Source of the DNA: an uncultured delta proteobacterium
GTDB lineage: Bacteria > Desulfobacterota > Desulfobacteria > Desulfobacterales > UBA2156
Direction of reading: 5' to 3'
Assembly (NCBI GenBank): GCA_963736855.1
Contig: CAVTQK010000005.1
Coordinates: 1 to 18,932 of the forward strand
DNA: 18,932 nt
Shown: positions 1 to 18,932 of the stretch, one piece after another
How the letters are laid out: each line of letters starts with the position of its first letter
How positions within the stretch are numbered: the first letter of the stretch is position 1
Position numbers and translations under genes: made by a program
The notes under the pieces: generated by a model
Databases searched by the model: none
Told to the model about the DNA's origin: nothing
What the model saw: the letters and a program-made list of their open reading frames with translations, nothing else

Positions 1-47
1 CAAATCTTAAAAAAATTCTCCTTTTTTATGGGAAACATGCTTTGGGA

Positions 48-77
48 TTTACGCAACGGTTAGAAAACTGATATAGT
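48..77 (+). promoter_or_regulatory. Candidate sigma-70 promoter for the DUF4388/cNMP gene
   Basis: TTTACG (48-53), 18-bp spacer, extended -10 TG-A-TATAGT (69-77) in an AT-rich region; GGAG RBS at 156-159. Confidence 0.35.
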
Positions 78-166
78 TTCTTATAAATACCATTGGAAAT
101 CATGAAGCTGATTTGTTTATGCGACTTTCTTAAAATCCATATATTTCGAACTATCGGAGATTAAAC

Positions 167-1347: not shown

Positions 1348-1402
1348 CCGGCATCCGAGATTACCCTTTGGAAAAACCGGCGAAAACCCTGGAGAACCAG
1401 CC

Positions 1403-2328
1403 TTGAAATACAGACCGGATGTCCTCGTTGTGGGGCGCTGTTGTGTGGATTATATCGCGGTCGTCGATACTTTCCCTAAAGAGGACACCAAGGCGCCGCT
1501 CGCATTCAGATCATCGAAGGAGGGGGACAGGGAGGAACCGCTTCATCCTGTATTGCAAGACTCGGAGGAAAGACTCTGTATGTCGGCAGGTTGGGAAATG
1601 ACGCAGAGGGTCGATTCTGCATGCAGCGATTGAAAGATTTCGGAGTAGACACATCCCTGGTCAATGTCGTGGAGGGCGGCACAACACCGGTGGCTTATAT
1701 CTTCGTAACGCAATCCAGCGGCAAGAGAACCATTATCTATGAGCGAAATGCGCTGCCTCGGCTTAAAATCATGGATATAAAGCCCGCCCTATCCCATAGG
1801 CCGAGGGTACTCCTGTTGGACCCGGAAACGACCTATCTGGCAAAAAGCCTAAAACCCAAAACGGCCGGTAACACCCGAATCGTTTATGACTGTGAAAGGT
1901 GGCGAGAGGGTATGGAGGCCATGATGGCTGAAGCCGATTTTTTCATACCGTCTTCTTCATTCCTGGATTCGGAACAACTCGGCTTCGAAGCGCTTGGATT
2001 TGCGGAAAAAATGTTTTATTTTAAAGCCCGCATCAAAGGCGAATTGATCGTGACGCGAGGTTCCAAGGGCGCCTTCTATATTTCAGATGATGCTCTGTTC
2101 CATGTCCCGGCACCGAAAGTGCCCGTCAAAGACACGACAGGAGCCGGAGACAATTTTCATGCTGCATTTGCCCTTGCCCTCGCCCGGGGTCTGAACATTC
2201 ATGAAACGGTACGTTTCTCTGTTGCCGTTGCCTCCCTTTCATGCCGGGAGTACGGCGGTCGAAACGGCATCCCTGAAAACCAGGAAGCGACCCGTCTGGC
2301 CGAGACGCTTAAAACAAGAAGACTTTAA
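1403..2328 (+). CDS. PfkB/ribokinase-family carbohydrate kinase (1 apparent frameshift at about 1510)
   Basis: TTG start with GGAG RBS. VLVVGRCCVDYI, then after the shift GGGQGGTASSCIARLGG...VGRLGND (PfkB signature 1), and DTTGAGDNFHAAF (signature 2). Confidence 0.88.
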
Positions 2329-2345
2329 ATCTTTCCTCCCCCGCA

Positions 2346-2684
2346 TTATTGCTGCCATCCGCCGAGCAGGTGCAAATGAAGATGAAAAATCACCTGCCCG
2401 CCCCCTCGCTCGACATTAAAAAACAGTTTATATCCGGACATGTGTATCTCAAGGCGTCTGGCCATCTCCCTGGCTGTTAAAACTAAATCGGCAAGGAGCT
2501 CCCGATCCGCATCCTCCATATCATTGATGCTTCGAATATGCTTTTTGGGCACGATCAGCAGGTGAACCGGGGCATGGGGGCGGATATCCCTGAACACCAC
2601 CAATCGATCGGTTTCATGCAAAAACTCCGTATCCGTCTTCCCGGAAGAAATCTTGCAAAACAAACAGTCGGTTTCCATGTTCAT
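2346..2684 (-). CDS. Histidine triad (HIT/HinT-like) nucleotide-binding protein
   Basis: DCLFCKI N-terminus, FRDIRPHAPVHLLIVPKKHI, and GGQVIFHLHLHLLGG histidine triad. Confidence 0.93.
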   Translation of the reverse strand: MNMETDCLFCKISSGKTDTEFLHETDRLVVFRDIRPHAPVHLLIVPKKHIRSINDMEDADRELLADLVLTAREMARRLEIHMSGYKLFFNVERGGGQVIFHLHLHLLGGWQQ

Positions 2685-2731
2685 TTTCCTTAGACCTAAA
2701 TTGATCGTTTTAAATAATCGCTCAATTTAGG

Positions 2732-3463
2732 TTAGAGTATTTTCGAATCGTTCTTCGAATGCAGCGCCTTTTCTTTATCAATTTTCCATTTTCCCGGCCG
2801 GGTGGGAGTTTTCAGGGACTTTTCCAGAATCTCTAAAAATAGACCGCGCGGTATATGCTGGGCTCCCATGCGTATCAGGTAAGTCGTAGTGGTTTGGCAA
2901 TCGATCATGGAAAAGGACCATTTTAAAAGCTGACCGACAAGATAGACCAGCGCCACCTTCGATGCGTTGGGTATACGACTGAACATGGATTCACCGAAAA
3001 AGCTACTTCCCAACGCCACACCATAAAGACCGCCGCAAATTTTGTCCTCATTCCAAATTTCCACCGAATGGGCAAATCCATATTCATGAAGGCGACAATA
3101 AGCTTCGATCATGTTTTGATCGATCCAAGTCTCTCCCCCTCTTTCCAGACGGACCCGGCCGCATTCGGTGATCACCTCCCGGAAAGCCGTATCCATGGTT
3201 ACCGTAAAAGGTCCGTTCTTAAGCACCCGCTTGAGGCGTCTTGAAATATGGAGCTTTTTCGGGAAAAGCACCAGACGGGGATCCGGAGACCACCACAGGA
3301 TAGGTTCACCTCCTCCGTACCATGGAAAGATCCCGTTTCGATAGGCGGCAATCAGGCGTTCAATGCTAAGATCGCCGCCTACCGCCAGAAGACCGTTGCT
3401 CTGGGCAAGGTACGACGGAGGAAAAACCGGTTTATCTGAAAGGAGAAAAACAGCCATTGGCAT
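2732..3463 (-). CDS. aat: Leucyl/phenylalanyl-tRNA--protein transferase
   Basis: GLLAVGGDLSIERLIAAYRNGIFPWY, WWSPDPR, AHSVEIW, FFGESMFSR and NASKVAL motifs; lies downstream of clpS-clpA. Start could be 3457. Confidence 0.96.
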   Translation of the reverse strand: MPMAVFLLSDKPVFPPSYLAQSNGLLAVGGDLSIERLIAAYRNGIFPWYGGGEPILWWSPDPRLVLFPKKLHISRRLKRVLKNGPFTVTMDTAFREVITECGRVRLERGGETWIDQNMIEAYCRLHEYGFAHSVEIWNEDKICGGLYGVALGSSFFGESMFSRIPNASKVALVYLVGQLLKWSFSMIDCQTTTTYLIRMGAQHIPRGLFLEILEKSLKTPTRPGKWKIDKEKALHSKNDSKIL

Positions 3464-3570
3464 TTCGGTGTGACCGGCCGCCTGGACTCAGCATAAACCA
3501 GTTGCCGGCGATTATGGAAACGGGCACGGATCGAAGCGTTCGGTTGCCCGGAAGTTGAAAAACAGGGCCT

Positions 3571-5808
3571 TTATGTAAATTCAAATTGCAGCGTATCCGT
3601 TTTCAGATAAATGGCAACCTTCCCTCCTTTTTCCAACTTTCCGAACAAGATCTGTTCAGACAAAACATCTTTGATTTCCGTCTGGATCACCCGGGCCAAA
3701 GGCCTGGCCCCATAAGTGGGGTCATACCCTTTTTGAGCCAGGTACCGCCGAACATCCGGAGACATGGAGACAGTGACTTTCTTGGGAATCAGCTGATCGT
3801 TCAGCTCATCCATAAATTTGTCCACGATCTTTTCCACAATATCCAGGGAAAGCGCACTGAAGTGAACGATGGCATCCAAACGGTTTCGAAATTCCGGGCT
3901 GAAAAAGCTTTCCACGGCCTTTTTCCCCTTGGCTTTCAAGTCGCCCTTGGGATCGCCGAATCCGATAGTCATGGAACTCATCTCTCGCGCCCCTGCATTG
4001 GACGTCATGATGACGATGACGTTTCTGAAATCCGCCTTTTTCCCGTTGTTGTCCGTCAGTGTGGCATGATCCAGTACTTGGAGCAGGATGTTGAAAAGGT
4101 CCATGTGGGCTTTTTCGATTTCGTCCATCAGAAGCACGCTGTGGGGATGTTTACGGATGCCATCCGTCAGGAGTCCTGCCTGATCGAAACCGATGTATCC
4201 CGGCGGGGCACCGATGAGCCGGGCGACGGTATGCTTTTCCATGTATTCGCTCATGTCGAACCGAATAAATTGAATGCCCAGGTTCATGGCGATCTGCCGG
4301 GCCACCTCGGTCTTGCCGACACCGGTGGGCCCGGTGAAAAGGAATGACCCGATGGGTTTTTCCGGTGTCCTCAAGCCGGCCCGAGCCCGCTTGATGGCGG
4401 TCACAATGGCATGAATGGCCGGATCCTGTCCGAAGATCTTGTCTTTCAGTCGCCCCTCCAATTCCTCCAGGCGGGCCTTGTCGTTGGAGGACACACTCAC
4501 TGTGGGGATCTTGGCCATTTTGGCCACGATCTTTTCGATGTCGGAAGGATGGATATTTTTCCTGGACGCGCCCCCACCGGATAGGCGGACTGCGGCTCCC
4601 GCCTCATCGATGACATCGATGGCCTTGTCCGGAAGGAAACGGTCATTGATATATTTGGCGCTCAGTTCCACCGCTGCCTTCAGGGCGGCATCCGTATAGA
4701 CGATTCCGTGATGGGCCTCATATCTGGATTTAAGCCCTTTTAAAATCTGAATGGTTTCGGAAACAGGGGGTTCCGGAACTTCGATCTTTTCGAACCGGCG
4801 GGACATGGCCCGGTCTTTTTCAAAGTGGTTCTTATATTCCTCGTAGGTGGTGGATCCGATGCATCTCAGTTCGCCGGTAGCAAAGACCGGCTTGAGGATG
4901 TTGGACGCATCCATGGAGCCGCTGGATGTGGCACCGGCCCCGACGATGGTATGGATTTCATCGATGAACAAAATGGCGTTCTTCTTGTTTTTCAGCTCGG
5001 CGATTACTCCTTTAAGGCGTTGTTCGAAATCACCACGGAATTTGGTCCCTGCCAGCAATGCCCCCATATCCAACGAATAGATCTGGACATTTTTCAACAG
5101 GTCCGGGATGTCTCCCTTGTGGATCTTCTGCGCCAGTCCCTCTGCGAGGGCCGTCTTCCCCACACCGGGATCTCCCACGAAAATCGGGTTATTCTTACGT
5201 CTGCGGCAGAGAACCTGCACGGTCCGCTCCAGTTCCCGTTCCCTTCCGATGAGAGGATCGAGCTTTTCCTTTGCCGCCATCTCCATCAGGTCGACCGTAA
5301 ATAACGCCAGGGGATCGTCCTTTTTCTTTTCCGCCTTCTGGGTTTTGACAAACCCTCCGATCACGTCCGCAAACGGATCTTTGGGCACGCCGTGGGTAAT
5401 AGAGTTGAGAACGTCCAGCCGGGTGATCCCCTCCTGTCCTAAGAAATAAGCCGCATAGGAATCGGTTTCCAGAAAAATGGAGGCTAAAATGTCACCGATT
5501 TCCACTTCCTGTTTCTCGGCATTTCGCACGTGATTGACTGCGCGCTGGATGACTCTCTGGAATCCCAGCGTCTGCTGGAGCACGTAATCGCTTTCCTCCG
5601 GAACTGTCGCCATCTTTTCATCGAAGAATCGCTTCAGGCGTTGCTTAAGATTGCCGATGTCTCCACCGCAGTTCTGAATGATTTCTTTCCCATTTTCATC
5701 ATGAAGAATGGCAAACAGGATATGTTCGATGGAGACATACTCGTGGCGTCTTCTCTTGGCTTCACTGACGGCAAAACCGAGCGTCGCGCTCAATTCTTTG
5801 CTGATCAT
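3571..5808 (-). CDS. clpA: ATP-dependent Clp protease ATP-binding subunit ClpA
   Basis: 745 aa with Clp N domain and two AAA+ modules (GDPGVGKT, GPTGVGKT), RFDMSEYMEKH motif, no ClpB/ClpC middle coiled coil, directly after clpS. Confidence 0.96.
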   Translation of the reverse strand: MISKELSATLGFAVSEAKRRRHEYVSIEHILFAILHDENGKEIIQNCGGDIGNLKQRLKRFFDEKMATVPEESDYVLQQTLGFQRVIQRAVNHVRNAEKQEVEIGDILASIFLETDSYAAYFLGQEGITRLDVLNSITHGVPKDPFADVIGGFVKTQKAEKKKDDPLALFTVDLMEMAAKEKLDPLIGRERELERTVQVLCRRRKNNPIFVGDPGVGKTALAEGLAQKIHKGDIPDLLKNVQIYSLDMGALLAGTKFRGDFEQRLKGVIAELKNKKNAILFIDEIHTIVGAGATSSGSMDASNILKPVFATGELRCIGSTTYEEYKNHFEKDRAMSRRFEKIEVPEPPVSETIQILKGLKSRYEAHHGIVYTDAALKAAVELSAKYINDRFLPDKAIDVIDEAGAAVRLSGGGASRKNIHPSDIEKIVAKMAKIPTVSVSSNDKARLEELEGRLKDKIFGQDPAIHAIVTAIKRARAGLRTPEKPIGSFLFTGPTGVGKTEVARQIAMNLGIQFIRFDMSEYMEKHTVARLIGAPPGYIGFDQAGLLTDGIRKHPHSVLLMDEIEKAHMDLFNILLQVLDHATLTDNNGKKADFRNVIVIMTSNAGAREMSSMTIGFGDPKGDLKAKGKKAVESFFSPEFRNRLDAIVHFSALSLDIVEKIVDKFMDELNDQLIPKKVTVSMSPDVRRYLAQKGYDPTYGARPLARVIQTEIKDVLSEQILFGKLEKGGKVAIYLKTDTLQFEFT

Positions 5809-5812
5809 CGGT

Positions 5813-6127
5813 TTACTCTCTTTCCATGGTGCATTTTAGCGGAAAACCGTTTTCATGCGCCAGTGCATGAACCTTTTGGACTTTTGTTTCCGCAACCTCA
5901 AAGGTGAACACTCCGCATATCCCGATACCGATTTTGTGTACATTCAGCATGATCCGTGTGGCATCTCCCATCGACTTGTTGAAAACACTCATTAGAATAA
6001 AAACGACGAAATCCATGGTGGTATAATCATCATTGTGGAGGAGTACCCGATACATAGCCGGCTCCCGTGTCTCAACATCGGACTCCGAAAGGGCGGTTTC
6101 TTCTTCACCGGGTTCGTATCCACCCAT
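5813..6127 (-). CDS. clpS: ATP-dependent Clp protease adaptor ClpS
   Basis: [20 protein letters not shown]...MLNVHKIG...EVAETKV...[15 protein letters not shown] on the - strand. Confidence 0.97.
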
Positions 6128-6189
6128 TCATCTTTTCTCCTAAAATGACGATTCATCGGCTCATTTCATTAAAAGGGGCTTATATTAGA

Positions 6190-6218
6190 AATATAAAGTT
6201 GCAGACTGTAAAAATCAA
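6190..6218 (-). promoter_or_regulatory. Candidate sigma-70 promoter of clpS-clpA-aat
   Basis: On the - strand, TTGATT (6218-6213), 17-bp spacer, TATATT (6195-6190), about 60 bp upstream of the clpS ATG. Confidence 0.45.
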
Positions 6219-6245
6219 GCCCTACGACGCCTTGAAATTAATCTT

Positions 6246-6398
6246 GATGGCTTCGTAAAAAGTCCAATTTCTGCGTTGCGCTTCATCCCGTTGCGATTTC
6301 GACGTACGATAAGTACGCCTCATCACACGGGATTCGCGACGCCTTGAACTTGAACTTTTTACTTTGCCATCTAATTTTCGACTTTTTATGAGTTCATC
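6246..6398. mobile_element. 153-bp MITE-like hairpin element, copy 1
   Basis: Ends GATGGCTTCGTAAAAAGTC ... GACTTTTTATGAGTTCATC are imperfect terminal inverted repeats. Flanked by AATCTT/AATCTC (5/6 duplication). Homologous to 8976-9128; non-coding. Confidence 0.85.
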
Positions 6399-6422
6399 AA
6401 TCTCCAAACCTAGCGATATTTT

Positions 6423-8945
6423 TTAGCGACCACAACATTTCTTGTATTTTTTACCGCTGCCGCACGGGCATGGATCGTTTCTTCCTACCTTTTTCTGATC
6501 CCGTCGCACCGGTTCTTTTCGGTCTCCTTCGTCACCGCCGGAATAAATAAGCATCTGTTCCTTGGGCTTTTGCAGCTCCGAAAGACTTTCCGGTTGTGCG
6601 ATCTCAATACGAAACAGGATTCCAAGCGTCTCTTCCTTGACCCGGGAAATCATGTCGGAAAACATCCCGAAACCCTCTTTCTTATAAACCAATAGAGGAT
6701 CCTGCTGGGCATATCCCCGAAGGCCGATCCCCTCTTTGAGATGGTCCATGCTGAGCAGATGGTCTTTCCATAGATGGTCCACGGTCTGGAGCATAACGAT
6801 GCGTTCCAATTCCCGACACTGTTCGACGCCTATGGCCTTTTCCCGCGTCTCATAGACTTCGAGCGCGCGCTTAGTTATGGTTTCAGCCAGCCCATCGGGA
6901 TCTTCGCCCTCCAATGTCTCATCGCCTACATCGAGTTGAAAATTGAACTGCTTGAATACCGCTTCCCGAAGGCCTTTGATGTTCCATTCCTCGGACGGCA
7001 CCTTTTCATCGGCATATGTTGTGGCGATTTCCGCGGCTTTTTCTCCGATCATCTCTATAATGTTGCCTTTCAGGCTTTCACCGCTGAGGGTCTCCCGCCG
7101 CTGACGATAGATGACCTCCCTCTGCTGGTTCATCACGTTGTCATATTCCAGAAGTTGCTTACGAATCTCGAAGTTATGAGCCTCCACCTTCTTCTGAGCG
7201 TTTTCGATGGCTTTGGAAATGTAAGGATGTTCGATGGGTTCACCCTCCTGCATGCCCCCCCATTCCCAGAACTTGCCCATCCGTTCACCCCCGAAGATCC
7301 GGAGCAAATCATCCTCCAGGGCCAGATAAAACCGCGATGTACCCGGATCCCCTTGCCTGCCGGAACGACCTCGAAGCTGGTTGTCGATTCGCCGGCTTTC
7401 ATGTCGCTCCGTCCCGAGGATATGGAGCCCTCCCAGTTCGACAACACCCTCTCCCAAGACGATGTCTGTCCCGCGGCCCGCCATGTTGGTGGAAATGGTG
7501 ACAGCCCCTTTCTGCCCGGCCATGGCCACGATTTCAGCTTCCTTCTTGTGGTTCTTGGCGTTTAGGACCGAGTGCTTGACCCCCCGCTTGCTCAGCTTTT
7601 CACTCAAGGCTTCGGAGACGTCGATGGAGATCGTCCCTACCAGGACCGGTTGTCCCCGACGGTAGCAATCCTCGATCTCATTTAAGGCCGCTTCATATTT
7701 TTCTTTCTTGGTCTTGTAGATCACATCAGGATGATCCGTCCGGATCATCGGCTTATGTGTCGGGATTACGCAGACATCCAGATTATAAATCTTTTTGAAT
7801 TCAGCCGCTTCCGTGTCTGCAGTGCCTGTCATCCCGGCCAGCTTTTTATACATCCTGAAATAATTTTGAAAAGTAATGGTGGCAAGCGTCTGGTTTTCGT
7901 TCTCGATCTTGACGTTTTCTTTGGCCTCCAGGGCCTGGTGCAGCCCCTCGCTGTAGCGCCGGCCGGGCATGAGACGACCTGTAAATTCGTCAACGATGAC
8001 CACCTCTCCGTCTTTGACGATATAATCCACATCCCGCTTGAAGAGCTGATGAGCCTTCAGCGCCTGATTAACGTGGTGCAGCAGTTCGATATATTTGGGG
8101 TCATAGAGGTTTTCCACCTTGAGAATGGCTTCGGCGTGGGCCACGCCTTCTTCAGTGAGAACCACGGTTCTGGCCTTTTCATCGATGGTAAAATCCTGAT
8201 CCTTCTTCAATCGCCCGATGATGCCGTTCACCTGATAGTAAAGCTGGGTCGACTTCTCCGCCAGCCCGGATATGATCAAGGGGGTCCTGGCCTCGTCGAT
8301 GAGGATACTGTCCACCTCGTCCACGATGGCATAATTCAGTTCCCTCTGGACCAGGGAGAAGCGGTCGAATTTCATGTTGTCGCGTAAATAGTCGAATCCG
8401 AATTCGTTGTTGGTGCCATAGGTAATATCACAGCGATAAGCTTCGTGGCGCTCCCGATCGTCGATCCCGTGCACAATGGTTCCAACGGTCAACCCGAGAA
8501 AGCGATAGATATTTCCCATCCATTCCGTGTCGCGCCGTGCCAGGTAATCATTCACCGTGACGATATGAACCCCTTTACGGCTCAGGGCGTTGAGATAGGC
8601 GGGAAGGGTTGCAGCCAGTGTTTTTCCTTCACCGGTTTTCATTTCCGCAATTATTCCCTGATGCAAGACGATTCCGCCGACCGACTGGGCATCGAAATGA
8701 CGCATCTTGAGGGTGCGGACCGAAGCCTCCCTAACGGTGGCAAAAGCTTCGGGAAGGATCGCATCCAGAGGCTCCCCTTTTTCGACGCGTTCCCGATAAA
8801 GGTATGTCTGGGCTTTGAGCTGGGCATCGGACATGCCCTGCATCCGCGGCTCCAGGTTGGTAATCTGGTCAACCAAGGGCACAAGCTTCTTGAGTTCTCG
8901 ATCGTTCTTACTGCCGAATACTTTCGTTAAGACATTAAACAACAT
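6423..8945 (-). CDS. secA: Preprotein translocase ATPase subunit SecA
   Basis: [58 protein letters not shown] and a C-terminal SEC-C motif [19 protein letters not shown]. Confidence 0.99.
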
Positions 8946-8975
8946 GACTCAATCATCTTTCAAAGCATCAAAATT

Positions 8976-9128
8976 GATGGCTTCGTAAAAAGTCCATCTG
9001 CTGCGTTGCACTGCATCCTTCGTCATTGCGGCGTACCCATATGTACGCCTCATTCCTCAGGATTTGCGCGCCTTGCATCTGAAGCTTTTTACTTTGCCAT
9101 CCTAATTTTGAGTTTTTACGATTTCATC
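8976..9128. mobile_element. 153-bp MITE-like hairpin element, copy 2
   Basis: Ends GATGGCTTCGTAAAAAGTC ... GAGTTTTTACGATTTCATC. Perfect 6-bp flanking duplication AAAATT (8970-8975 and 9129-9134). Same length and orientation as copy 1. Confidence 0.88.
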
Positions 9129-9158
9129 AAAATTGATATCCGGTAAACGAATTTTGTT

Positions 9159-9169
9159 ATTATAACACA
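9159..9169 (-). promoter_or_regulatory. Candidate extended -10 promoter of secA
   Basis: The - strand reads TGTGT-TATAAT, a consensus TGnTATAAT, pointing toward secA across MITE copy 2. Confidence 0.5.
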
Positions 9170-9267
9170 GACGCCCTCAGAGAAAAAGGTGCAAGGCAAT
9201 CACTGGATCAGACCCGTGATAAAGAGGCGGGGATGAAACTTATGACAAACCCGTAGATGGGTCAATG

Positions 9268-10185
9268 TTACATGAATTTTTTAGGATCTACCGGGGTACC
9301 GCCCACGATAATTTCGTAATGAAGATGCGGTCCGGTGGTTCGACCGGTATCGCCCACCCTGGCGATCACCTCTCCGCGTTTGATGCGATCTCCCGGTTTT
9401 TTGTCGGCTATACTCAAGTGCCCGTATCGGGTAATGACACCGTTGCCATGGTCAATGACCAGCACTTTCCCCAGGCCACCCTTACGTTCGACATTAATGA
9501 CAATACCGTCCGCCGGCGATTTTATCGGCGCCCCATAATGAGAGGAAATATCCACGCCGCTATGAAATTCACGCATATCATTGAACGGTGATTGCCGCCA
9601 GCCATACCCGGAAGAAATGTGCCCCGGCACCGGGCGTCCCGTGGGAGTGCATGAAAAGATCTCCCGCTGTCGTCCCAACAGGTCCAGAAGCTTTTCGAAC
9701 TTTTTCTCCTGGTCGATGGAGGTTTGCTGAAGCTGTTCCATCTCTTGTCGCATTTCAGAAAGGAAGTCCCCCGGCATGTTTTTGATTTCCGATTTGGGAT
9801 CGACGTCCTCAGGAAGCGGTCCTCCAACGCCATCTAATTTGGCAGCTGCTCCAAAATCCTCTTTGGCGATGAGTCTCAGCTTTTCCTCCAGAACGTACAT
9901 CCGGGCCAGTTTCGATTTTAACCAATTGATATCATAATCTAATTTTTTAATTTGGTCCCAAAGGTGCTCTGCAGAATTCCTTTGCCGCGAGGCACTGTTT
10001 CCATCAGAGGCCAGATCCATATGACGTTGCCGGAGCGAAAAATAGTCCATCATCAAAAACATCCATCCTGCAATGAGGACGATGATACAACCCGACAAAA
10101 ATTTTAAGAATTTTTTAGAGAGGGTCACTTTCTTGACGGGTCCAGTCGAATTGCTGGTTACAAAAAACGTGATCTTCTCCTTCAT
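9268..10185 (-). CDS. M23-family metallopeptidase with N-terminal TM segment and coiled coil
   Basis: Hydrophobic segment (FLSGCIIVLIAGWMFLMM), coiled-coil region, and zinc motifs HSGVD (HxxxD) and TGPHLHYE (HxH). Confidence 0.93.
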   Translation of the reverse strand: MKEKITFFVTSNSTGPVKKVTLSKKFLKFLSGCIIVLIAGWMFLMMDYFSLRQRHMDLASDGNSASRQRNSAEHLWDQIKKLDYDINWLKSKLARMYVLEEKLRLIAKEDFGAAAKLDGVGGPLPEDVDPKSEIKNMPGDFLSEMRQEMEQLQQTSIDQEKKFEKLLDLLGRQREIFSCTPTGRPVPGHISSGYGWRQSPFNDMREFHSGVDISSHYGAPIKSPADGIVINVERKGGLGKVLVIDHGNGVITRYGHLSIADKKPGDRIKRGEVIARVGDTGRTTGPHLHYEIIVGGTPVDPKKFM

Positions 10186-10350
10186 GATTGTTAATTCCTT
10201 GAGATGTTCGTTTCCTGGTTAAAGTAATTCCGGCGCCGGGTATCTCTGCACTTCCATCATAGAGCCGAGGTCAGGCGGATTGGTGTTTGGATGCCCCTTA
10301 TGGGATCCGTTTCAGCCGATCGTTTTTTAAAAGGTGCTGTGTTTAAAGTC

Positions 10351-10396
10351 GAATCCTTTCGGCGAAACTCATAATGTGTATCCGCCGAAAGGATTC
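10351..10396 (-). terminator. 14-bp perfect stem just after the folD stop; probable terminator or RNA-stabilising hairpin
   Basis: GAATCCTTTCGGCG (10351-10364) pairs with CGCCGAAAGGATTC (10383-10396). The loop is 18 nt and the U tract is short, so it is atypical. Confidence 0.55.
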
Positions 10397-10408
10397 TAAT
10401 TGAAAAAA

Positions 10409-11317
10409 TCAGGCAATACCGAGCTTGAACTTCAAGGATTTCAGAGTGTTTTTCATGAGCATGGTGATGGTCATGGGTCCAACGCCGCCCGGAACCGGGG
10501 TAATCCATCCGGCAATCTCCTTGGCCGCATCGAAATCCACGTCCCCTTTGAGGATTGCAACCTTTTTACCGGTTTTTTCGCTGACCTTTTCCCCTACCCG
10601 GTTGACTCCCACATCAATGACACAGGCGCCTGGTTTGATCCATTCGGGTTTTACCAGACCGGGCACTCCGGCAGCCACAATGAGAATATCCGCCCGTTTG
10701 CAATGCACGTCCATATTCTTGGTCCGGGTGTGGACAACGGTTACCGTGGAATTGGCCCCCGGGCCTTTTTGGAGCATCATGTTGGCGATGGGCTTTCCGA
10801 CGATGTTGGATCTTCCCACAACCACCACCTCCGCGCCGGAGGTTTCAACTCCCGAGCGCACGATCAACTCCTGGATTCCGGCCGGTGTGCAAGGCGGATA
10901 CTTGACTTCCTTTCCACCGATCATCAGACGCCCCACATTGACGGGATGAAACCCGTCCACGTCCTTGTCCGGGTCAATGGCGTTGAGAACTTTTTTCTCG
11001 TCGATATGCTTGGGAAGCGGCAACTGAACCAGGATGCCGTTGATGGTATCATCTTTGTTGTATTTGTCGATGAGGGCCAGAAGATCTTTTTCGGAAAGCT
11101 TCTCGGACTGACTGTCCTGGACCTCCTTGAACCCAACTCGATGAGCCGTTTGTATCTTCAGGGTCACATAGGAAATGGATGCGGGATTTTGCCCTACGAG
11201 GATGGTTACCAGTCCCGGAACCACACCATGTGTTTTTTTGATCTGGGCCACTTCGGCGGTGATCTCCTCCAGAATCTTCTCCCGGACCTCTGTCCCCACA
11301 ATCAATTTTGCCGGCAT
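10409..11317 (-). CDS. folD: Bifunctional methylenetetrahydrofolate dehydrogenase/cyclohydrolase
   Basis: GILVQLPLP, KDVDGFHPVN, PCTPAG, VGRSNIVGKP and ITPVPGGVGPMTITMLM motifs; AAGGAG RBS. Confidence 0.98.
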   Translation of the reverse strand: MPAKLIVGTEVREKILEEITAEVAQIKKTHGVVPGLVTILVGQNPASISYVTLKIQTAHRVGFKEVQDSQSEKLSEKDLLALIDKYNKDDTINGILVQLPLPKHIDEKKVLNAIDPDKDVDGFHPVNVGRLMIGGKEVKYPPCTPAGIQELIVRSGVETSGAEVVVVGRSNIVGKPIANMMLQKGPGANSTVTVVHTRTKNMDVHCKRADILIVAAGVPGLVKPEWIKPGACVIDVGVNRVGEKVSEKTGKKVAILKGDVDFDAAKEIAGWITPVPGGVGPMTITMLMKNTLKSLKFKLGIA

Positions 11318-11442
11318 GTCGCTTCTCCTTTCTTGATGGTATTAACTCCTTTATCGATTGGATTTCGCCTCCATGATCGTCTTATTCTTGAAAGCCCACA
11401 TCCGTAAAGACCGAAATGCTCCTCATGGGATCAATCTAGATC

Positions 11443-11471
11443 TATGTAGTGAAAAAAGATAGCCCTGTCAA
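11443..11471 (-). promoter_or_regulatory. Candidate sigma-70 promoter of folD
   Basis: On the - strand, consensus TTGACA (11471-11466), 17-bp spacer, weak -10 TACATA. Confidence 0.3.
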
Positions 11472-11572
11472 GTCACGCCGCCAGAAATGCCTTTTTAATT
11501 AGGTTTGACGGTCCAATAATCATGCCACTTACGTCGATTGAGTCTTCCTTTTTCACACAGTGCAAATATCGA

Positions 11573-12610
11573 TCATATCGGATAGGGTACACCCGTCAGC
11601 CCTGTTCTTTCCTCCAGTTTACACATCAGGTTCATGTTCTGGACCGCCTGTCCGGATGCCCCCTTTACCAGGTTATCGATGGCCGACATGAGAATGATCC
11701 GTCCGGCCTCTTTGTCGATGACGAACCCGATATCGCAGAAATTGGTCCCCCGGACATGCAGCGTATCCGGAACGACCCCGTTCCCGCGGATCCGGATGAA
11801 CGGTTTCCGGCCGTAATGGCTTTCAAAACATTGCGTCACCGCTTCGGGTCCCGCGTCATGTTTCAAGGTCGCATAGACCGTGGAAAGCATCCCCCTGGAC
11901 ACGGGCAAAAGATGCGGGACAAAGGTGATATGCACTGGGCTTCCGGCGATATGACTTAAAACCTCCTCCATTTCTGGCGCATGCCTGTGGGAACCGACAC
12001 CATAAGGCTTGAAGGATTCAGCCACTTCACAAAAAAGCGTTTTCAGGGACGGCGACCGCCCTGCCCCGCTCACTCCTGACTTGGCATCGATGATTATGCC
12101 CTCCGTCTCGACGAGGCCTTCACGGATCAGGGGGATAAGCGGCAGCATGCTGCAGGTGGGATAACATCCCGGGTTGCCCACAAGTCTCGCCTTCGCGATC
12201 TGATCTGAAAAGACCTCGCTCAACCCGTAAACCGCCTCCTTCAAAAGATCGATTGCGGTGTGGGGCTGGTAGTATCGTTCGTAGGTGGTCGGATCCCGGA
12301 ACCGGAAATCCGCGGAAAGATCGATCACTTTAAGGCCCCTTCCCAGGAGCCCGGGAATGATTTCCATGGGGAGCTTGTGCGGAAGGGCTGTGAAAACCGC
12401 ATCCGCCTTATACCCCACCGCATCCGGATCGAAGGCCTCCAGGGTTTTCCGTACCGCCCCGGCCAGGGCCGGATAGACCTCTGAAATTTCCTTTCCCACA
12501 TATTGCGTGGAGGTCAATACCGTCAACTCAACATCCGGATGCCCGCTGAGGATGCGGACCAGTTCCGCGCCGGTATAGCCGGTCGCGCCCACGATCCCTA
12601 CCCTGATCAT
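11573..12610 (-). CDS. argC: N-acetyl-gamma-glutamyl-phosphate reductase
   Basis: MIRVGIVGATGYTGAEL start with GGGAGG RBS, so the start is 12610 rather than 12706. IDLSADFR, catalytic NPGCYPT, SGVSGAG and DNLVKGASGQAVQNMN motifs. Confidence 0.97.
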   Translation of the reverse strand: MIRVGIVGATGYTGAELVRILSGHPDVELTVLTSTQYVGKEISEVYPALAGAVRKTLEAFDPDAVGYKADAVFTALPHKLPMEIIPGLLGRGLKVIDLSADFRFRDPTTYERYYQPHTAIDLLKEAVYGLSEVFSDQIAKARLVGNPGCYPTCSMLPLIPLIREGLVETEGIIIDAKSGVSGAGRSPSLKTLFCEVAESFKPYGVGSHRHAPEMEEVLSHIAGSPVHITFVPHLLPVSRGMLSTVYATLKHDAGPEAVTQCFESHYGRKPFIRIRGNGVVPDTLHVRGTNFCDIGFVIDKEAGRIILMSAIDNLVKGASGQAVQNMNLMCKLEERTGLTGVPYPI

Positions 12611-12728
12611 CTTGTTTCCTCCCTTCCCGCGGGGATTTTCCCACAGAAATGGTATTTCATCGAACCCCATGGCCGGGATACCAGATCCACGGCAAATTTC
12701 AAGCAAAACATCAAGCTGTGTTATCCGG

Positions 12729-12757
12729 TTGACTCTGCACGGTCGATTTTTTATCGT
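12729..12757 (+). promoter_or_regulatory. Candidate sigma-70 promoter of the NUDIX gene
   Basis: TTGACT (12729-12734), 17-bp spacer, TATCGT (12752-12757). Confidence 0.45.
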
Positions 12758-12816
12758 CTACTTAAAAGGTGCTTTTTCAACCGATTCTTTCGACATTAGG
12801 AAGGGATGGCCAGGCC

Positions 12817-13332
12817 ATGGAAGAAAAAGTCATGGTGGTGGATGCCGAAAATCGACCCATCGGTTCCGTGCCGCGCTCCGAAATGCGGGCTAAAAACCTT
12901 TTCCATCGGGCGGTGTATATCCTGGTGTTCAACTCCCGGGGAGAGCTTTTCAGGCACCAGCGGACCTTTACCAAGGACATCTACCCCGGATACTTCGACA
13001 TCGCTGCAGGAGGCGTTGTTCTGGCCGACGAGGCCTGGGAAGCGGCGGCGGCCCGGGAACTTCAGGAGGAGATGGGGATCCAAGAAGTTCCTCTGAAATT
13101 GGCCTTCGACATTTTCTTCGAGGAGCCCAACAGCCGGGTTTTCGGCCGCGTCTATACCTGCGTTTTTGACGGTGACATCACACTTCAAGCCGAAGAGGTC
13201 CTCTACGGCGCCTTCCTGCCCATGCAAACCATCCTCGAGGAGGCCAAGCAGCTCCCCTATACACCCGACGGATGGATGATTCTCGAGCGCTGGTTAAACG
13301 CCCCGGATTCCCTCAAGACGAAAATGGATTAA
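12817..13332 (+). CDS. NUDIX hydrolase, YfcD/IPP-isomerase-like
   Basis: VVDAENRPIG, HRAVYILVFN, QRTFTKDIYPGYFD and Nudix box GGVVLADEAWEAAAARELQEEMGI; likely ATG at 12817. Confidence 0.88.
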   Translation: MEEKVMVVDAENRPIGSVPRSEMRAKNLFHRAVYILVFNSRGELFRHQRTFTKDIYPGYFDIAAGGVVLADEAWEAAAARELQEEMGIQEVPLKLAFDIFFEEPNSRVFGRVYTCVFDGDITLQAEEVLYGAFLPMQTILEEAKQLPYTPDGWMILERWLNAPDSLKTKMD

Positions 13333-13336
13333 AAAC

Positions 13337-13622
13337 CGTCCGCGCAAATCGCAAAACTCTCCTTATTACCAAATAGTGTAGAGGACGACTTCGAGGCATT
13401 CGAAGGCATCTATGAAGATCGATTGGAGAGAGCATACGGTTCCTTTTCCACGAAAGCGGCATACTCACCGTGGCGCATTGGATCGATTGCCGGACTCTGG
13501 AGCGTCTCTTCAGACATCACGTGCTCCAGATGCTTTTGGAAAACGGTAAGATCACCCGGGATGTGATCGCCCTTCTGGATCGATGGCGGCATACCGGAAT
13601 CAAAATCTATTGCGGCAAATGA
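13337..13622 (+). pseudogene. Degraded, internally deleted IS91-family-like (Y2/HUH rolling-circle) transposase remnant
   Basis: Translation across three frames gives RPRKSQNSPYYQ / VEDDFEAFEGIYEDRLERAYGSF / FHESGILTVAHWIDCRTLERLFRHHVLQMLLENGKITRDVIALLDRWRHTGIKIYCGK*. From recall, these resemble the N-terminus and the WRH(S/T)GF region of deltaproteobacterial IS91-like transposases. Confidence 0.72.
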
Positions 13623-13778
13623 ACTCTTGCCGATGAATTTCAGATTGACAGCGCATTCACCTGCGCGTATGTAAAAATCCATACGCAATGAAAATGTGTG
13701 TTCCCATATCTTGGGGTTCAGGTAATGGCAAAACACAATTCATTCAATCGATCTAGCGTAACCCGAAAAAACAAGTTC

Positions 13779-13827
13779 TTATCACCTCACCTATCACTTT
13801 ATCACCTTACCTCACCTTGAGTGAGGT
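13779..13827. repeat. Cluster of short direct and inverted repeats (candidate operator or enhancer sites)
   Basis: TTATCACCT at 13779 and 13799; ACCTCACCT at 13784 and 13809; inverted repeat ACCTCAC-N5-GTGAGGT at 13809-13827. Confidence 0.6.
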
Positions 13828-13866
13828 TTATCCAGATCCGCAAATGGCTGATGCTTCTTCAGCCCA

Positions 13867-13882
13867 TGGCATTGGAATCGCG
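13867..13882 (+). promoter_or_regulatory. Candidate sigma-54 (-24/-12) promoter of the FNT/molybdoenzyme operon
   Basis: TGGCATT-GGAA-TCGC compared with consensus TGGCACG-N4-TTGC; exact GG-N10-GC spacing (13868-69 and 13880-81), about 43 bp before the FNT ATG. Confidence 0.6.
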
Positions 13883-13924
13883 TAATTGGGATTTTAACGA
13901 TAAAAATCAGAAAGAGGAAAGATT

Positions 13925-14806
13925 ATGCCGGCCGATGTGGATGAACTTGTCGTAAGGGTCGCCGACATCTGTTCTTACAAATGGGACATGATCCGTCACA
14001 GGCCCATGGCCTATCTCATTTCAGGATTCACCGGGGGGGCCATGGTCGTCTTCGGAGCAACACTGGCCCTTGCGGTGAGCGCCGGTGTTCCGGAAAAGCT
14101 TGCCCCCGGACTGGCCAACCTGCTCATGGGTCTCGTGTTCATGTTCTCCCTCGTGATCATCATGGTCAGCGGCATGACCCTTGTTACGGCCGACATGTAC
14201 ATCGGAATAATCGGCGTTTTCCACCGCCGCATTCGCTGGGGATGGTTCGTCTGGGGCATTACGCTCGGGTACGCGGGCAACTTCCTGGGCAGCATGATCT
14301 TCATGTGGCTCATCAGCAAGTCCGGCAGTTATGCATACATGCCCTGGCTCCTAAGGGCGCATGCCATCGGTGTGTCAAAATTGGGCCAGACCGCAACCCA
14401 GATCTTTGTCATGGGCATCGTCTGCACATGGATGCTTCAGACCGCTGCCATACTCTATGTTAAAGCTGAAGGCGACATTGCCAAGATCGCCATGGCTGCC
14501 TACGGGCCGCTTGCTTTCGTGGCCGGCATGACAGAGCACTGTATCGCCAATATCGGATTTTTGGCTCTGCCGCTTTTTCAACAAGACCTTTATCTGAAGG
14601 CTGTGGCGAACATGCCAGACGTAACTCCGATCCTTCTCCGCTGGGGATTCGGCCAGTACGGCTGGGCCCACAACCAGCTCTATACGGTTTTAGGGAACCT
14701 TATCGGAGGCATCCTGTTCGTGGGGATCGTATTTCAACTCGTATCCCATCCGGAGAGGGTATCGGAACTGTATAAAAACAAAACAAATTACATGCTCAAA
14801 CTCTAA
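13925..14806 (+). CDS. Formate/nitrite transporter (FNT) family anion channel, divergent
   Basis: About six hydrophobic helices; GMTLVTAD (loop Thr), YAGNFLG, AFVAGMTEHCIAN (central His) and GNLIGG motifs; AGAGGA RBS. Confidence 0.88.
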   Translation: MPADVDELVVRVADICSYKWDMIRHRPMAYLISGFTGGAMVVFGATLALAVSAGVPEKLAPGLANLLMGLVFMFSLVIIMVSGMTLVTADMYIGIIGVFHRRIRWGWFVWGITLGYAGNFLGSMIFMWLISKSGSYAYMPWLLRAHAIGVSKLGQTATQIFVMGIVCTWMLQTAAILYVKAEGDIAKIAMAAYGPLAFVAGMTEHCIANIGFLALPLFQQDLYLKAVANMPDVTPILLRWGFGQYGWAHNQLYTVLGNLIGGILFVGIVFQLVSHPERVSELYKNKTNYMLKL

Positions 14807-14837
14807 AATCAGCAGCTTAGAGGGAGGCTTCTTCACG

Positions 14838-14990
14838 ATGGATTATTCACCGTTTAACGCCGTTGTCTGGCTTGTTTTTGCCGGATTCGTCGCAGTCACC
14901 TACCTGACGGTCAGGGCATTCCACGGCAAATATCCCAAGTATCCCAATGCGAAAAAGAAAGGGAGAAACCAAACTGAAACCTTCGCCTAA
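14838..14990 (+). CDS. Small 50-aa single-pass membrane protein (not in the ORF track)
   Basis: AGGGAGG RBS at 14821-14827, then MDYSPFNAVVWLVFAGFVAVTYLTVRAFHGKYPKYPNAKKKGRNQTETFA*: one TM helix and a basic tail, in operon position. Confidence 0.7.
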   Translation: MDYSPFNAVVWLVFAGFVAVTYLTVRAFHGKYPKYPNAKKKGRNQTETFA

Positions 14991-15100
14991 AAGCGAGAGT
15001 TTTTCTTCCAATCCACGAAATGGACAATAGTCACCCGAATGCCGGGGGATTTCTGCACAGGGCCCCGGTGCATCGAGCTAAGGGAAAGGAGGCAAAAGAC

Positions 15101-17241
15101 ATGAAGAAGTCAGAATGGATTCCGACTGTGTGCTATCAGTGCAAGGCGGAGTGCGCCATCATTGCACGGGTTGAAGACGGAAGGGTAAAGGAAATCAGGG
15201 GAAATCCAAAGGCCCGCGGAAAGGCCTGCGTCAAGGGGATGGCAGGTGTGTCTTCGGAATATTCTCAGGATCGCCTGACCTATCCGATGAAACGCGTGGG
15301 CGAGCGCGGCGGGGGAAAATTTGAAAGAATATCCTGGGATGAGGCGATCGACATCATCTACAGGAAACTCAAAGATCTGAGGGACCGTGGGGATGCCCAC
15401 AAACTGACCGCCAATTTTTTTCCCCACAGTATAACAGATCCGAAATGGCGTTTTCTAAATGCCTATGGTGGGTTTATCAATACGGCGCTTCCTCACTGTG
15501 ATTCCGCCAAAATTGTGTCATTTATCAAAACAATGGGAGGAGTTCCGAACCATCATATCCCTCCTGCATGGTTCACGGTGCCCAAAGGAGGGATCATGAT
15601 ACTGGCGGGCCGCCACGCCTTTGGCGGTCTGGAAGATGCCGCGGTGCCAAGGGACATCCTCGATGCAAAAGCCCGCGGAGCCAAACTCGTTGTCATAGAT
15701 CCCATTTTTACGGCCGAGGCTGCCAAGGCCGATCAGTGGATACCCATTAAACCAAGCGGCGACACGGCGTTCTTTGTCGGCATGATCCACCACATCATAA
15801 TGAACGACCTGTATGACAAAGACTTTGTCGAAAACTGGATCCGTGAAGGGGACTTTGAAAAATTAAAGAAGTATGTTGCAGACAAAACTCCGGAAAAAAT
15901 GAGTAAAATCTGTGATGTCCCTTCTGAAACGATCAAGCAATTGGCTGTGGAATGCGCAAAGGCGCCTTCCGTGGGTGTAGACAGCTTTAAAGGTGTGATG
16001 CTCGGCAATGCCCTTGATTTTGCCCATGCATGGTGCATCTTTTTAGCGATTACCGGAAATATCGATAATCCGGGGGACAACCGCTTCCGGATCTGACCCC
16101 CCTGTCACCGGTGGCACCCGGCCCGGCCGGCCCGGCCCTGCACGAACTGGGTTGGCATCGAACCGGTCCGGATAGAGATAAATTTGCAAAATACTCTTTT
16201 ATTATGGAGCCGACATGGTACGAGGCCCAGGCGATAAAAAACGGCGGTCTGAAAGTTCTCATCACCGCAGAGTCGAATCCTGCTTTGACGGAAATGGGAC
16301 AAAATTCTGGCAGGAAGCGGTTTGCGAAAAAGACGGAAAGGGCGACTACAAACTTGAATTGCTGGTCAGCTTTGAAATTATGTTGTCGGAGACCGCCAGG
16401 TTTGCGGATCTGGTGTTGCCGGACAAGTCCTATTTTGAACGATGGGAGCTCCTCTACATGCCGTGGTGGTACAATTTTGGCCATGGAGTGGCATTGCGCC
16501 AGCCGGTTGTCGAGCTTCCGGGAGAATGCCGGCATTCCAATGAGATTTTTATCGAACTCGGCAAACGGCTGGTTCCGGACTATTTTCAATTTGAAAACGA
16601 TATCGCTTACTATGACATTCAACTGGCCGGCTTGGGACTTTCAGTTGAAAAACTCCGGGAGATCGGCGGGCTCTGGTCCCCCGGCACCATGGGATTCAGA
16701 AAATACAAAAAAGCCGGCGGGTTCGGTACACCGAGCAGAAAAATTCATCTTTATTGGGAGGATCTCGAAGCATCCCCTTGGAATCAAAAGGCCCCCAGAG
16801 TGGAGCTTGCACCGGAATACAGGGTGAAATGTCGAGAAATTTCCGTTTATCCTTATTTCTTATCGAACCATTTATCATTCAGGATCAGGACAATGGACCC
16901 ACAACAACCCTCAGTTTCGAGACAGGATTTCGGGACTTCATGAAAATCCGCTTATGATGAATCCTACAACTGCCGGTAAATTGGGCATTTCTCAAGGGGA
17001 TCGGGTAACGGTGGAATCCCCGAGCGGAAGCATTCAGGTAAAGGTCCATCTTACCGAAGGGATTCGACCCGACTGTGTAGGGCTGGGACATGGTTTTGGA
17101 TCCAGCGTCGGTCGGGTAGCAACCGTCGGCAAAGGGGTAAGCAACAACCTGCTGGTTCCTGACGCAGGCTCCACCCTGGACTGGCAGGATGTTGTAGGGG
17201 GTGAATCACATGTTTCCACGCGCGTTCGTATCGTGAAATAA
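15101..17241 (+). CDS. DMSO-reductase-family Mo/W-bisPGD oxidoreductase catalytic subunit, cytoplasmic, about 713 aa (3 apparent frameshifts)
   Basis: AAGGAGG RBS then ATG at 15101. FS0 motif CYQCKAEC...CVKG, DRLTYPMKR, ISWDEA, KLVVIDP, ADQWIPIKPSGD, AITGNIDNPGG, SETARFADLVLP, FGTPSRKI and a C-terminal molydop-binding domain. Indels at about 16075, 16300 and 16827 join the ORF pieces. Confidence 0.9.
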
Positions 17242-17252
17242 AGGAGGAAAAC

Positions 17253-18932
17253 ATGAAACAGTTAAGTTTGATGATAGATCTGAATCGGTGTACCGGGTGC
17301 CGAACCTGCATTGTTGCATGCAGAAACTATCATGAGATCATCGATCATGCCACGGCCATGCCGAATGAAATACCCTATTACCTGAGAGTGGAAAGCCGCA
17401 GCCGGGGAACATATCCAGCTATTTCAGAGGACACATGGGTCGTTCCCTGTCAGCATTGCGGCGAGCCGAATTGCGCGGCCGCTTGCCCGGAGGGGGCAAT
17501 CCGCAAAGTCCTGAAACAGGGATCGTTCGCATCGATAAAGAGATTTGCAACGGGTGCAATGCACTCAAGGGACTCTGACGGCCCATAAACAACTTACTTC
17601 GCCCTGCAAGGTCGCCTGCCCGGCGCATATGAATGTCCAGGGATACATCGGTCTGGTTGCCAAGGGGAAATTTAAGGAAGCGCTGAAGGTCATGAAGGAG
17701 GATAATCCCCTGCCCGCTATATGCGGCAGAGTCTGCGACCATCCTTGCGAGTCAAAGTGCAATCGGGGCGAAATTGACGAGCCGGTCGCCATCAATGCGA
17801 TCAAAAGATTCGTGGCGGATCTGGATTTAAAAGAAGATACACGGTATGTGCCTGAAGTTAAAGATAAAAAAGAAGAGAAAATTGCAGTCGTCGGTTCGGG
17901 TCCAGCAGGTCTGAGCTGCGCCTATTTTCTTGCCCGTGAAGGGTATCCGGTCACTATATTTGAGAAAGCGCCTCTCTAGGAGGTATGCTGACCTTCGGCA
18001 TCCCATCGTACCGGCTTCCCAGAACCCTTATCGAAGCGGAAATCAAGGTCATCCAAGATATGGGGGTTGCCATGAAAACAGGCATGGAACTGGAGGGATA
18101 TCACCGTGGAGCAGTTGAGGCAGCAGGGTTTTAAAGCCTTTTTCATTGGAATCGGCGCGCAGGAATGCAAAAGCCTTGGCATAGAAGGCGAGGATCTGAG
18201 TGGTGTATATCCGGGCATTGACTTTCTCAACAGAATTAACCTTGGAGAATCGGTTTCCCTGGGAAAACGGGTGGCCGTGATTGGAGGAGGCAATGTAGCG
18301 CTGGATGCGGTGCGGACGGCCCGACGCCTCGGCGGGAAAGAGGCCTGTATCATCTACCGAAGAAGCTTTGATGAAATGCCGGCAAATGCGGGTGAAATCA
18401 AAGAAGGTCAGGATGAGGGCATTCCCATGCATACCCTGACCCAGCCGGTTCGATTCATCGGAAGAAATGGACGCGTGAGTAAAATAGAATGCATAAAGAT
18501 GCAGCTGGGAGCGCCGGATGAAAGCGGACGTAAAGTTCCTATGCCCGTTGCCGGTTCGGAGTTTACGATGGATGTGGATGCTGTCATCACCGCTTTGGGA
18601 CAGGAAACGGACTGGGCCTGCCTGACTCCGGAATGCGCCTGCCGGTTGACGGACTGGGGAACCATGACGTCGATCCGCTCACCTATCAAAGCGATGATCC
18701 GGATATTTTTGCAGGAGGAGATGCGGTGACCGGACCCCGGACGGTCATTGAAGCAATTGCCGCCGGAAAAGAAGCGGCTATATCTATTGACCGGCTTATT
18801 CGAGGGGCTAATCTCCGTGAAGGCCGGGGCAAAGAATGGGCTGTTGCAGCCGAGGTTCAAAAAGGAGAAATATCATCCTGCAAAGCGCACCCGGATGCCT
18901 GCTCTGAAACCTGAAGAGAGGGTGAACAACTT
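17253..18932 (+). CDS. Fusion of DmsB/NrfC-like 4Fe-4S dicluster domain and GltD/NfnB-like FAD/NADPH oxidoreductase (about 6 apparent frameshifts, truncated by window end)
   Basis: AGGAGG RBS. CTGCRTCIVAC, CQHCGEPNCAAACP, CNGC, then PCKVACP, CGRVCDHPCE, GSGPAG, GGMLTFGIPSYRLP, GGGNVALD...YRRS, FAGGDAVTGP and RMPALKPEERVNNF. Indels at about 17506, 17565, 17975, 18095, 18666 and 18860. Confidence 0.85.

Follow-up and report, generated by a model that had tools for sequence, protein, structure and literature searches.

The question raised by this locus is which small anion is handled by a four-gene module at positions 13779 to 18932 of a stretch of DNA from an uncultured delta proteobacterium, in which a channel of the FNT family is followed by a microprotein, a molybdenum- or tungsten-dependent (Mo/W) catalytic subunit (A) and an iron-sulfur partner (B). 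The stretch analysed, referred to as the window, is the entire contig C5 (positions 1-18932). As stated in the initial annotation, the four genes run in one direction with a ribosome-binding site (RBS) before each, and the same layout is found in an intact copy on contig C14 of the same assembly. The module is apparently a real, conserved and undescribed operon; no description was found in the literature searched, and subscription journals or supplements may hold one. Thiocyanate, cyanate or cyanide, taken jointly, would probably be the class of substrate. The first choice within this class, held tentatively and at somewhat under an even chance, is a cytoplasmic, Mo-catalysed sulfur transfer in strict anaerobes, SCN- <-> HS- + CN-.

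The window duplicates contigs C10/C11 and C14 at 96-98% identity, a strain-level difference, and carries numerous single-base indels relative to them. Its frameshifts are assembly errors, because codon changes relative to C14 are mainly synonymous (115 versus 51 non-synonymous) with no new stops, and because the bases lost in the window are present, at most positions, in contigs of run X1, which may be the source sample, and run X3, from a different study. On the same evidence, together with the C14 copy in which all four genes are intact (lengths in Table 1), a pseudogene reading of the module was rejected. The repair of indels suggested earlier is supplied by C14, and the C10/C11 and C14 copies are the better text for reading any other feature of the window. 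A one-base assembly loss near 14952 alters the microprotein C-terminus in the window, and A starts at the ATG at 15101, which has an RBS, rather than at 15020, which has none. Comparisons were made over 85 loci (80 from one scan, the C14 copy and four from a second scan); a few share one metagenome-assembled genome (MAG), so the loci are partly redundant and not all independent.

In the C14 copy, the Fe4S4, molybdopterin and dinucleotide-binding domains of A all score above the Pfam cut-offs, which places A in the dimethyl sulfoxide reductase (MopB) superfamily, and A is predicted to bind Mo or W as the bis-pyranopterin guanine dinucleotide (bisPGD) cofactor. The motif LPHCDS is invariant (73/73), and its Cys, aligned with the Cys ligand of PsrA and PhsA, is the predicted Mo ligand; a P[NC]HHI motif is also conserved. 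The absence of a twin-arginine translocation (Tat) leader claimed for the window extends to the family, with no Tat motif in any of 83 N-termini examined. A tblastn search of the 85 loci gave no match for NrfD, PhsC, TorD-like chaperone, YeeE or rhodanese queries, the anchor search consisting of three queries that very divergent anchors could escape. In C14 the module is followed by a MetE-like gene (L081:10989-12095; a reading of the sequence, with no Pfam match) and not by an anchor gene, in agreement with the missing anchor noted earlier. The MetE-like gene has paralogues on C17 and C20 and is not conserved in other loci.

A was placed in a FastTree phylogeny of 97 sequences and 637 columns (Shimodaira-Hasegawa-like support, midpoint root). 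The references were mostly named by annotation; ArrA and TtrA were represented by ArrA-like and TtrA-like proteins below NCBIfam cut-offs, and SoeA, SreA, SrrA and AioA had no reference sequence. The A family is monophyletic (1.0) on a stem of 0.82 and falls on the Psr/Phs/Arr/Ttr side (0.993), with Nap, Nas, Fdh and Nar across the split. Membership in NapA/NasA, FdhF or NarG is therefore contradicted by a split of 0.99 and by scores far below the cut-offs, membership in ArrA/ArxA or TtrA by the separate clade and the lack of a Tat leader, and membership in PsrA/PhsA by a separate long-stem clade and a sub-cut-off score. The best structural match is PsrA (2vpw, E 1e-60) and the best family model is PhsA, yet A reaches only 296 bits against a cut-off of 694, and its identity to annotated PhsA and PsrA-like matches is 26-28.5%. 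Scored with the A profile, the family's own representative reaches 1130 bits and the next-best full-length protein about 341. Judged by tree and profiles, A is an isolated family outside every characterised clade that could be placed, as the tree proposed in the initial annotation was meant to decide. The nearest outside protein, P0173, has chaperone and NrfD genes at its locus, which gives no hint of substrate. An AlphaFold2 model of A from 13 sequences had a pLDDT of 47.8 and was not used.

B occurs in a plain form (54 loci) and in a form with a GltD-like insert (23 loci), with eight incomplete. The GltD domain reported on the Fe-S partner is real, but it is inserted inside the distal Fe-S motif rather than appended. 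It carries GGGNxAxD...YRR, which we take to be an NADP(H)-type motif, and it never shares a locus with a long HPP protein. In plain B, the second Cys of the distal motif is missing in 40/54, all four Cys are kept in 5/54 and 9/54 were unread; the one missing distal Cys suggests a [3Fe-4S] cluster.

The slot for the transporter is occupied by FNT in 36 loci, long HPP in 38 and short HPP in 3, is empty in 8 (five of which have short flanks), and never holds FNT and HPP together. FNT and HPP alternate on the A tree within three mixed clades at support of at least 0.99 and about three weaker ones. Of 52 metagenome loci with the long HPP, none contains an FNT, and A or B was matched in 34, in one of these just by a distant enzyme at 24%; no match to the long HPP was found among plasmids. 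The channel belongs to the FNT family by its PF01226 match and conserved pore residues. It retains equivalents of the FocA Thr, Lys, His and Asn, and it scores 89.5 against a FocA cut-off of 290 and 53.6 against a NirC cut-off of 293. The signatures LVT[AS]D, CTWxLQ and YGPxAFVAGMxEH are found in 35-36 of the 36 Mo-operon FNTs and in 15/15 sister FNTs from other operons. The microprotein directly follows the FNT in 30/36 FNT loci and in 0/49 other loci, and it also stands behind sister FNTs in unrelated operons. When two FNT chains were co-folded with the microprotein, the score was 0.74 (best control 0.00), a mark reached by 116/157 solved versus 2/215 mismatched pairs, counts that apply only roughly here; contact agreement between runs was at least 94% and partner pLDDT at least 81. 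The microprotein is thus probably an FNT accessory subunit, its binding supported by the co-fold. The synteny proposed in the initial annotation, in which FNT, small open reading frame, Mo enzyme and GltD travel together, therefore holds for the channel and microprotein, but HPP takes the place of FNT in 41/85 loci and the GltD insert is confined to 23/85. Similarly, its soluble, anchorless and channel-linked anion system is conserved, but NADP(H) coupling is not general. Neither a characterised clade around A, nor an unconserved FNT linkage, nor a downstream anchor gene, each named there as fatal to the proposal, was found.

The module is carried by Desulfobacterota, Syntrophaceae, Coriobacteriia, Anaerolineae and Victivallales, and Promethearchaeota proteins match at 72-75% identity. 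Carriers include Nitratidesulfovibrio oxamicus, Desulfocurvibacter africanus, Pseudodesulfovibrio mercurii and Desulfohalobium retbaense, as well as one Desulfocapsa MAG and one Desulfolutivibrio MAG. Neither D. alaskensis (Dde_1076) nor D. vulgaris (PhsA), both treated in PMC4215793, turned up in the two scans, which miss some known carriers. In 50 carrier genomes (of 66 first selected), mostly incomplete MAGs, dsrA was found in 37, nrfA in 15 and cyanase in 3; the cyanase search was incompletely sensitive, since E. coli, which bears cynS (PMC6627978), gave no match in the control. The own genome has dsrA and a weak partial match to the nrfA family. A clade-B-like carbon monoxide dehydrogenase (CODH) was found in 2/50 carriers, a figure with no background rate for comparison. 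A link to the Wood-Ljungdahl pathway or MetE was rejected, since neither folD, which the window carries, nor metF, which adjoins one locus, is conserved. At one locus of an Anaerolineales MAG (L017:12472-16179), a GltD-MvhD fusion, metV and metF come after the module.

The substrate can be approached through the operons in which relatives of the transport parts occur. An FNT-alignment scan gave 53 loci, 15 of them with full-length sister FNTs at 41-55% identity. Of these, six have scnB/scnA within 4 kb, three more have cynS, and six have only a flavoprotein operon (an acyl-CoA-dehydrogenase-like gene with DUF4242 or OsmC). Over all 15, cynS adjoins six and cynR six, and ScnC, CynS and CynR were above NCBIfam cut-offs where scanned. 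One locus of Acidithiobacillus ferrianus (L299) combines the flavoprotein set, FNT, cynS and rhodanese. Locus L298 has scnBAC with the FNT and no cyn gene found in the available DNA. In the four plasmid loci of the flavoprotein set inspected (of 180 records), an ATP-binding cassette (ABC) importer with an HPCC binding protein replaces the FNT in all four, with cynS in two and a sulfurtransferase in one. The long HPP lies behind a His-rich CODH in 7/52 metagenome loci, and these CODHs are 52-55% identical to the CODH beside an HxCC importer. We take the Zn-binding protein 3UN6 to be S. aureus SA0167, and SA0165-69 presumably to be the flavoprotein set. According to the accessible parts of two papers, 3UN6 resembles the binding proteins of clade B CODHs (PMC13592312), and sulfur starvation, through CymR, controls SA0165-69 (PMC5480029). 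Like clade B RfCODH in the former paper, the CODHs beside the long HPP have a His-rich N-terminus, and it is on this likeness, not on a tree, that they are called clade-B-like here.

Three unrelated transport or sensor parts are thus common to four enzyme systems, among which is an established thiocyanate enzyme. We infer by guilt by association that their common denominator is thiocyanate or cyanate, and thiocyanate is favoured because of the hydrolase operons, the rhodanese and sulfurtransferase neighbours and the sulfur-starvation control of SA0165-69. The initial annotation had named HS-, bisulfite and hypophosphite among its candidates, and the gene context points away from them.

Control of the module was assigned earlier to a -24/-12 promoter. 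The site is present, but the strict pattern occurs in just one of 84 upstream regions, that of the own C14 copy (one region was mis-cut), compared with 41/425 random coding 260-mers, so sigma-54 control is not supported. In 47/85 loci (e.g. L062:6407-7846), an extracytoplasmic function (ECF) sigma factor fused to an NMT1_2 HxCC binding domain lies upstream. A promoter-type motif, GAAC[CT]TTTT-N13-15-CTCT, composed after the sequences had been viewed, precedes the first structural gene in 47/47 ECF loci and 1/36 others. Neither fusion nor motif was found in the window or own genome; in the window, a transposase-like remnant occupies the place at which relatives have the ECF gene and promoter. 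A query of 301 genomes of the phylum gave no fusion and only four binding-protein matches, and no paper on such a fusion was found in the literature searched. The sensor domain belongs to the NrtA/CmpA Pfam family, has H.CC in 43/43 where NrtA-type proteins presumably have HPEK, and has as its best PDB match the Zn-binding protein 3UN6; the HxCC domain probably binds Zn. Its closest relative among eight binding proteins compared adjoins a CODH (L307), and the ESM Atlas gave generic NMT1 clusters only.

In the sulfur-transfer reading, thiocyanate would be the anion that FNT (with the microprotein) or HPP passes and that the ECF sigma factor detects through its HxCC domain. The Cys-ligated Mo centre would carry out a Psr/Phs-type transfer of a sulfur atom, SCN- + 2H+ + 2e- <-> HS- + HCN, with electrons passing via B to NADP+ in the form with the GltD insert or to another carrier in the plain form. 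Mo-sulfido groups undergo cyanolysis to SCN-. This chemistry and the Psr-type ancestry of A, which is nearest to the sulfur-transferring PsrA, are the reasons for favouring this couple. Potentials (E0') computed from assumed formation energies are about -616 mV for SCN-/HS- + HCN, -516 mV for OCN-/HCN and -169 mV for OCN- + S0/SCN-; of the three, the two oxidations that consume cyanide are the only ones that run downhill to NADP+ and also suit a [3Fe-4S] exit. There is a slight preference for HCN + HS- -> SCN- + NADPH, since it would be downhill for both types of B, so that cyanide would be scavenged and the channel would release SCN-. In the other direction, SCN- would be taken up and cleaved reductively as a source of sulfur or nitrogen. 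The two directions are left nearly balanced because, on the same assumed inputs, the potential for reductive cleavage moves to about -410 mV when SCN- is at mM level and its products are scarce, and because ABC importers in the sister systems speak for the anion being consumed.

Several points weigh against a thiocyanate role, which is itself drawn from gene context. FNT and HPP proteins are promiscuous, and the only transport role known for HPP is that for nitrite, as cited in PMC7898387. The 85 Mo loci and the own genome yielded no scn, cyn or flavoprotein gene. Related mine-drainage MAGs are among the sources of the sister FNT loci, which amount to fewer than 15 independent events. The HPCC binding protein also occurs in a plain cynABDS-like order (L313), and therefore cyanate fits as well. 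Two closer FNTs are exceptions, one at a rearranged locus with an A fragment (L261) and one (70%) with its microprotein ahead of MtrH and a UroD/B12 fusion (L283:4001-7899), a context that fits neither thiocyanate nor cyanate. The potentials rest on assumed energies, and the sister importers tell against the preferred direction.

The strongest rival, itself rather unlikely, is oxygen transfer centred on cyanate, either HCN + H2O -> OCN- or, in a Mo counterpart of thiocyanate dehydrogenase, SCN- + H2O -> OCN- + S0, with the channel passing cyanate. It would account for cynS and cynR beside the sister FNTs and for the HPCC protein at L313, cyanate ABC systems being described in the accessible text of PMC6627978, and cyanide oxidation would be downhill to NADP+. 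Against it stand the cyanase count of 3/50, subject to the sensitivity given above, the cost of SCN- oxidation with NADP+ (+29 kJ/mol, assumed inputs) and scnBAC with an FNT at L298.

An unlikely reading is a soluble thiosulfate or polysulfide reductase or a sulfite oxidase, with HS- or bisulfite passing the channel. The PsrA and PhsA matches, dsrA in 37/50 carriers, the Desulfocapsa and Desulfolutivibrio MAGs and a thiosulfate reduction near the potential of NADPH (assumed inputs) are consistent with it, but the PhsA score and identities are low, YeeE and rhodanese were not found, and dsrA was not found in 13/50 carriers, including 10/18 with the GltD insert, in incomplete MAGs. The scn/cyn context of the FNT subfamily would be left unexplained, and SoeA lies outside the tree set.

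That A is a new nitrate reductase of the cytoplasm, with the channel passing nitrite, is quite improbable. Both FNT and HPP include nitrite-transporting members, the ECF sensor is in the NrtA/CmpA family, and the probable [3Fe-4S] of B resembles NarH. An HPP gene of D. desulfuricans is induced by NO (PMC5701242, accessible text). The nitrite reading is lowered because A lies outside the Nap/Nas and Nar clades, nrfA is in only 15/50 carriers with a weak partial match in the own genome, and the sensor has HxCC; in addition, nitrate was not converted by a clade B CODH that is accompanied by a comparable binding protein (PMC13592312, accessible text). Equally improbable is some other small anion (selenite, hypophosphite, an arsenical or a methylated sulfur anion). 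Enzymes for As and Se oxyanions do belong to the Psr supergroup (PMC10100899, accessible text), ArsP-family permeases adjoin two loci (L034, L261) and the context of L283 includes a methyltransferase, but the neighbours scanned contained no conserved gene for Se, P or As and the scn/cyn links would stay without explanation.

Compared with PsrABC/PhsABC (PDB 2VPW; NCBIfam NF012032), the module shares the Mo-bisPGD fold, the Cys at the ligand position, the N-terminal Fe4S4, a four-cluster-type B and the side of the tree, but it lacks a Tat leader, yielded no gene for an anchor or chaperone, and has less than 30% identity, its own motifs (LPHCDS, PNHHI), a probable [3Fe-4S] or a flavin insert in B, and a linked channel. 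In its predicted working it is like an anchorless PsrAB, yet A is no PsrA/PhsA member. SoeABC and bacterial SreABC have a membrane anchor. They are set beside the module by description only, as cytoplasmic, Cys-ligated MopB enzymes of the sulfur cycle (PMC10100899, whose accessible text does not mention the anions at issue here). The scnBAC and cynS/cynR clusters share the FNT subfamily, but work by Co-dependent hydrolysis in aerobes or facultative organisms and have no Mo enzyme; both known thiocyanate routes are essentially aerobic (PMC5778177, accessible text). FNT genes are paired with those of cytoplasmic enzymes in focA-pflB, nirC-nirBD, fdhC-fdhAB and hsc-asrABC. The module follows this pattern, but its FNT is of another subfamily (about a third or less of the cut-offs), has an accessory microprotein and can be swapped for HPP. 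The MOLY disproportionation cluster differs because it is Tat-exported with a chaperone (PMC12998232, accessible text); five named module carriers are absent from table 1 of that paper, and its sequences could not be mapped to the A family. Clade B CODH operons have 3UN6-like Cys/His binding proteins, and the CODHs of the long-HPP loci share their His-rich N-terminus, but the enzyme is a Ni-Fe-S one whose substrate is left open in the accessible text of PMC13592312; thiocyanate and cyanate are absent from its main text.

The features of the window are summarized in Table 1. A 157-bp repeat resembling a miniature inverted-repeat transposable element, with terminal inverted repeats TTGATG...CATCAA, lies at 6240-6400 and 8974-9130; the genome has 80 near-full copies, and at the latter site the C14 copy has no insertion. 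Elsewhere, the own genome encodes an HPCC-type ABC binding protein (G000:C18:9007-9873, L144). At L293:4953-6986, a sister FNT precedes a Mo enzyme 28% identical to A, downstream of OsmC and a flavoprotein gene.

Table 1. Features of the module and its upstream region in the window.
Feature	Position	Strand	Remarks
Transposase-like remnant, multi-copy	13336..13745	+	HUH-type motif in C14 copy; presumably IS91-like
Sigma-54-like site	13867..13881	+	Not conserved; probably chance
FNT channel, distinct subfamily	13925..14806	+	293 aa, also in C14; PF01226 match, far under FocA, NirC and fnt cut-offs
Single-transmembrane microprotein (small open reading frame)	14838..14990	+	46 aa in intact C14 copy; probable FNT accessory subunit
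Mo/W-bisPGD catalytic subunit (A), predicted cytoplasmic	15101..17241	+	713 aa, intact in C14; Fe4S4 motif, LPHCDS, P[NC]HHI; indel-broken in window
PsrB/DmsB-type Fe-S subunit (B) with GltD-like flavin domain of ~470 aa	17253..18932	+	Runs into contig end; 665 aa in C14
GltD-like insert in B	about 17581-18930	+	Within distal cluster motif

His-rich, clade-B-like CODHs are found at L322, L326, L327, L329, L330, L335, L339 and L307:5147-8871, paired either with the long HPP, in many cases accompanied by a GAF sigma-54 activator, or with an HxCC ABC importer. At L289-L291, L293-L295, L299 and L310-L313, OsmC or DUF4242 and an acyl-CoA-dehydrogenase-like gene occur with an FNT or HxCC importer, some loci adding cynS, rhodanese or an FAD reductase; these are candidates for an aerobic route from thiocyanate to cyanate.

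The module would, on a doubtful but testable view, hold the first thiocyanate/cyanide molybdoenzyme, acting under strictly anaerobic conditions, and FNT with microprotein, long HPP and HxCC proteins would mark a thiocyanate network that includes clade B CODHs and 3UN6-type importers. The culturable carriers make the A family directly testable. The module also suggests an accessory subunit for an FNT channel. The same logic of context offers thiocyanate or cyanate as a candidate substrate for clade B CODH (PMC13592312).

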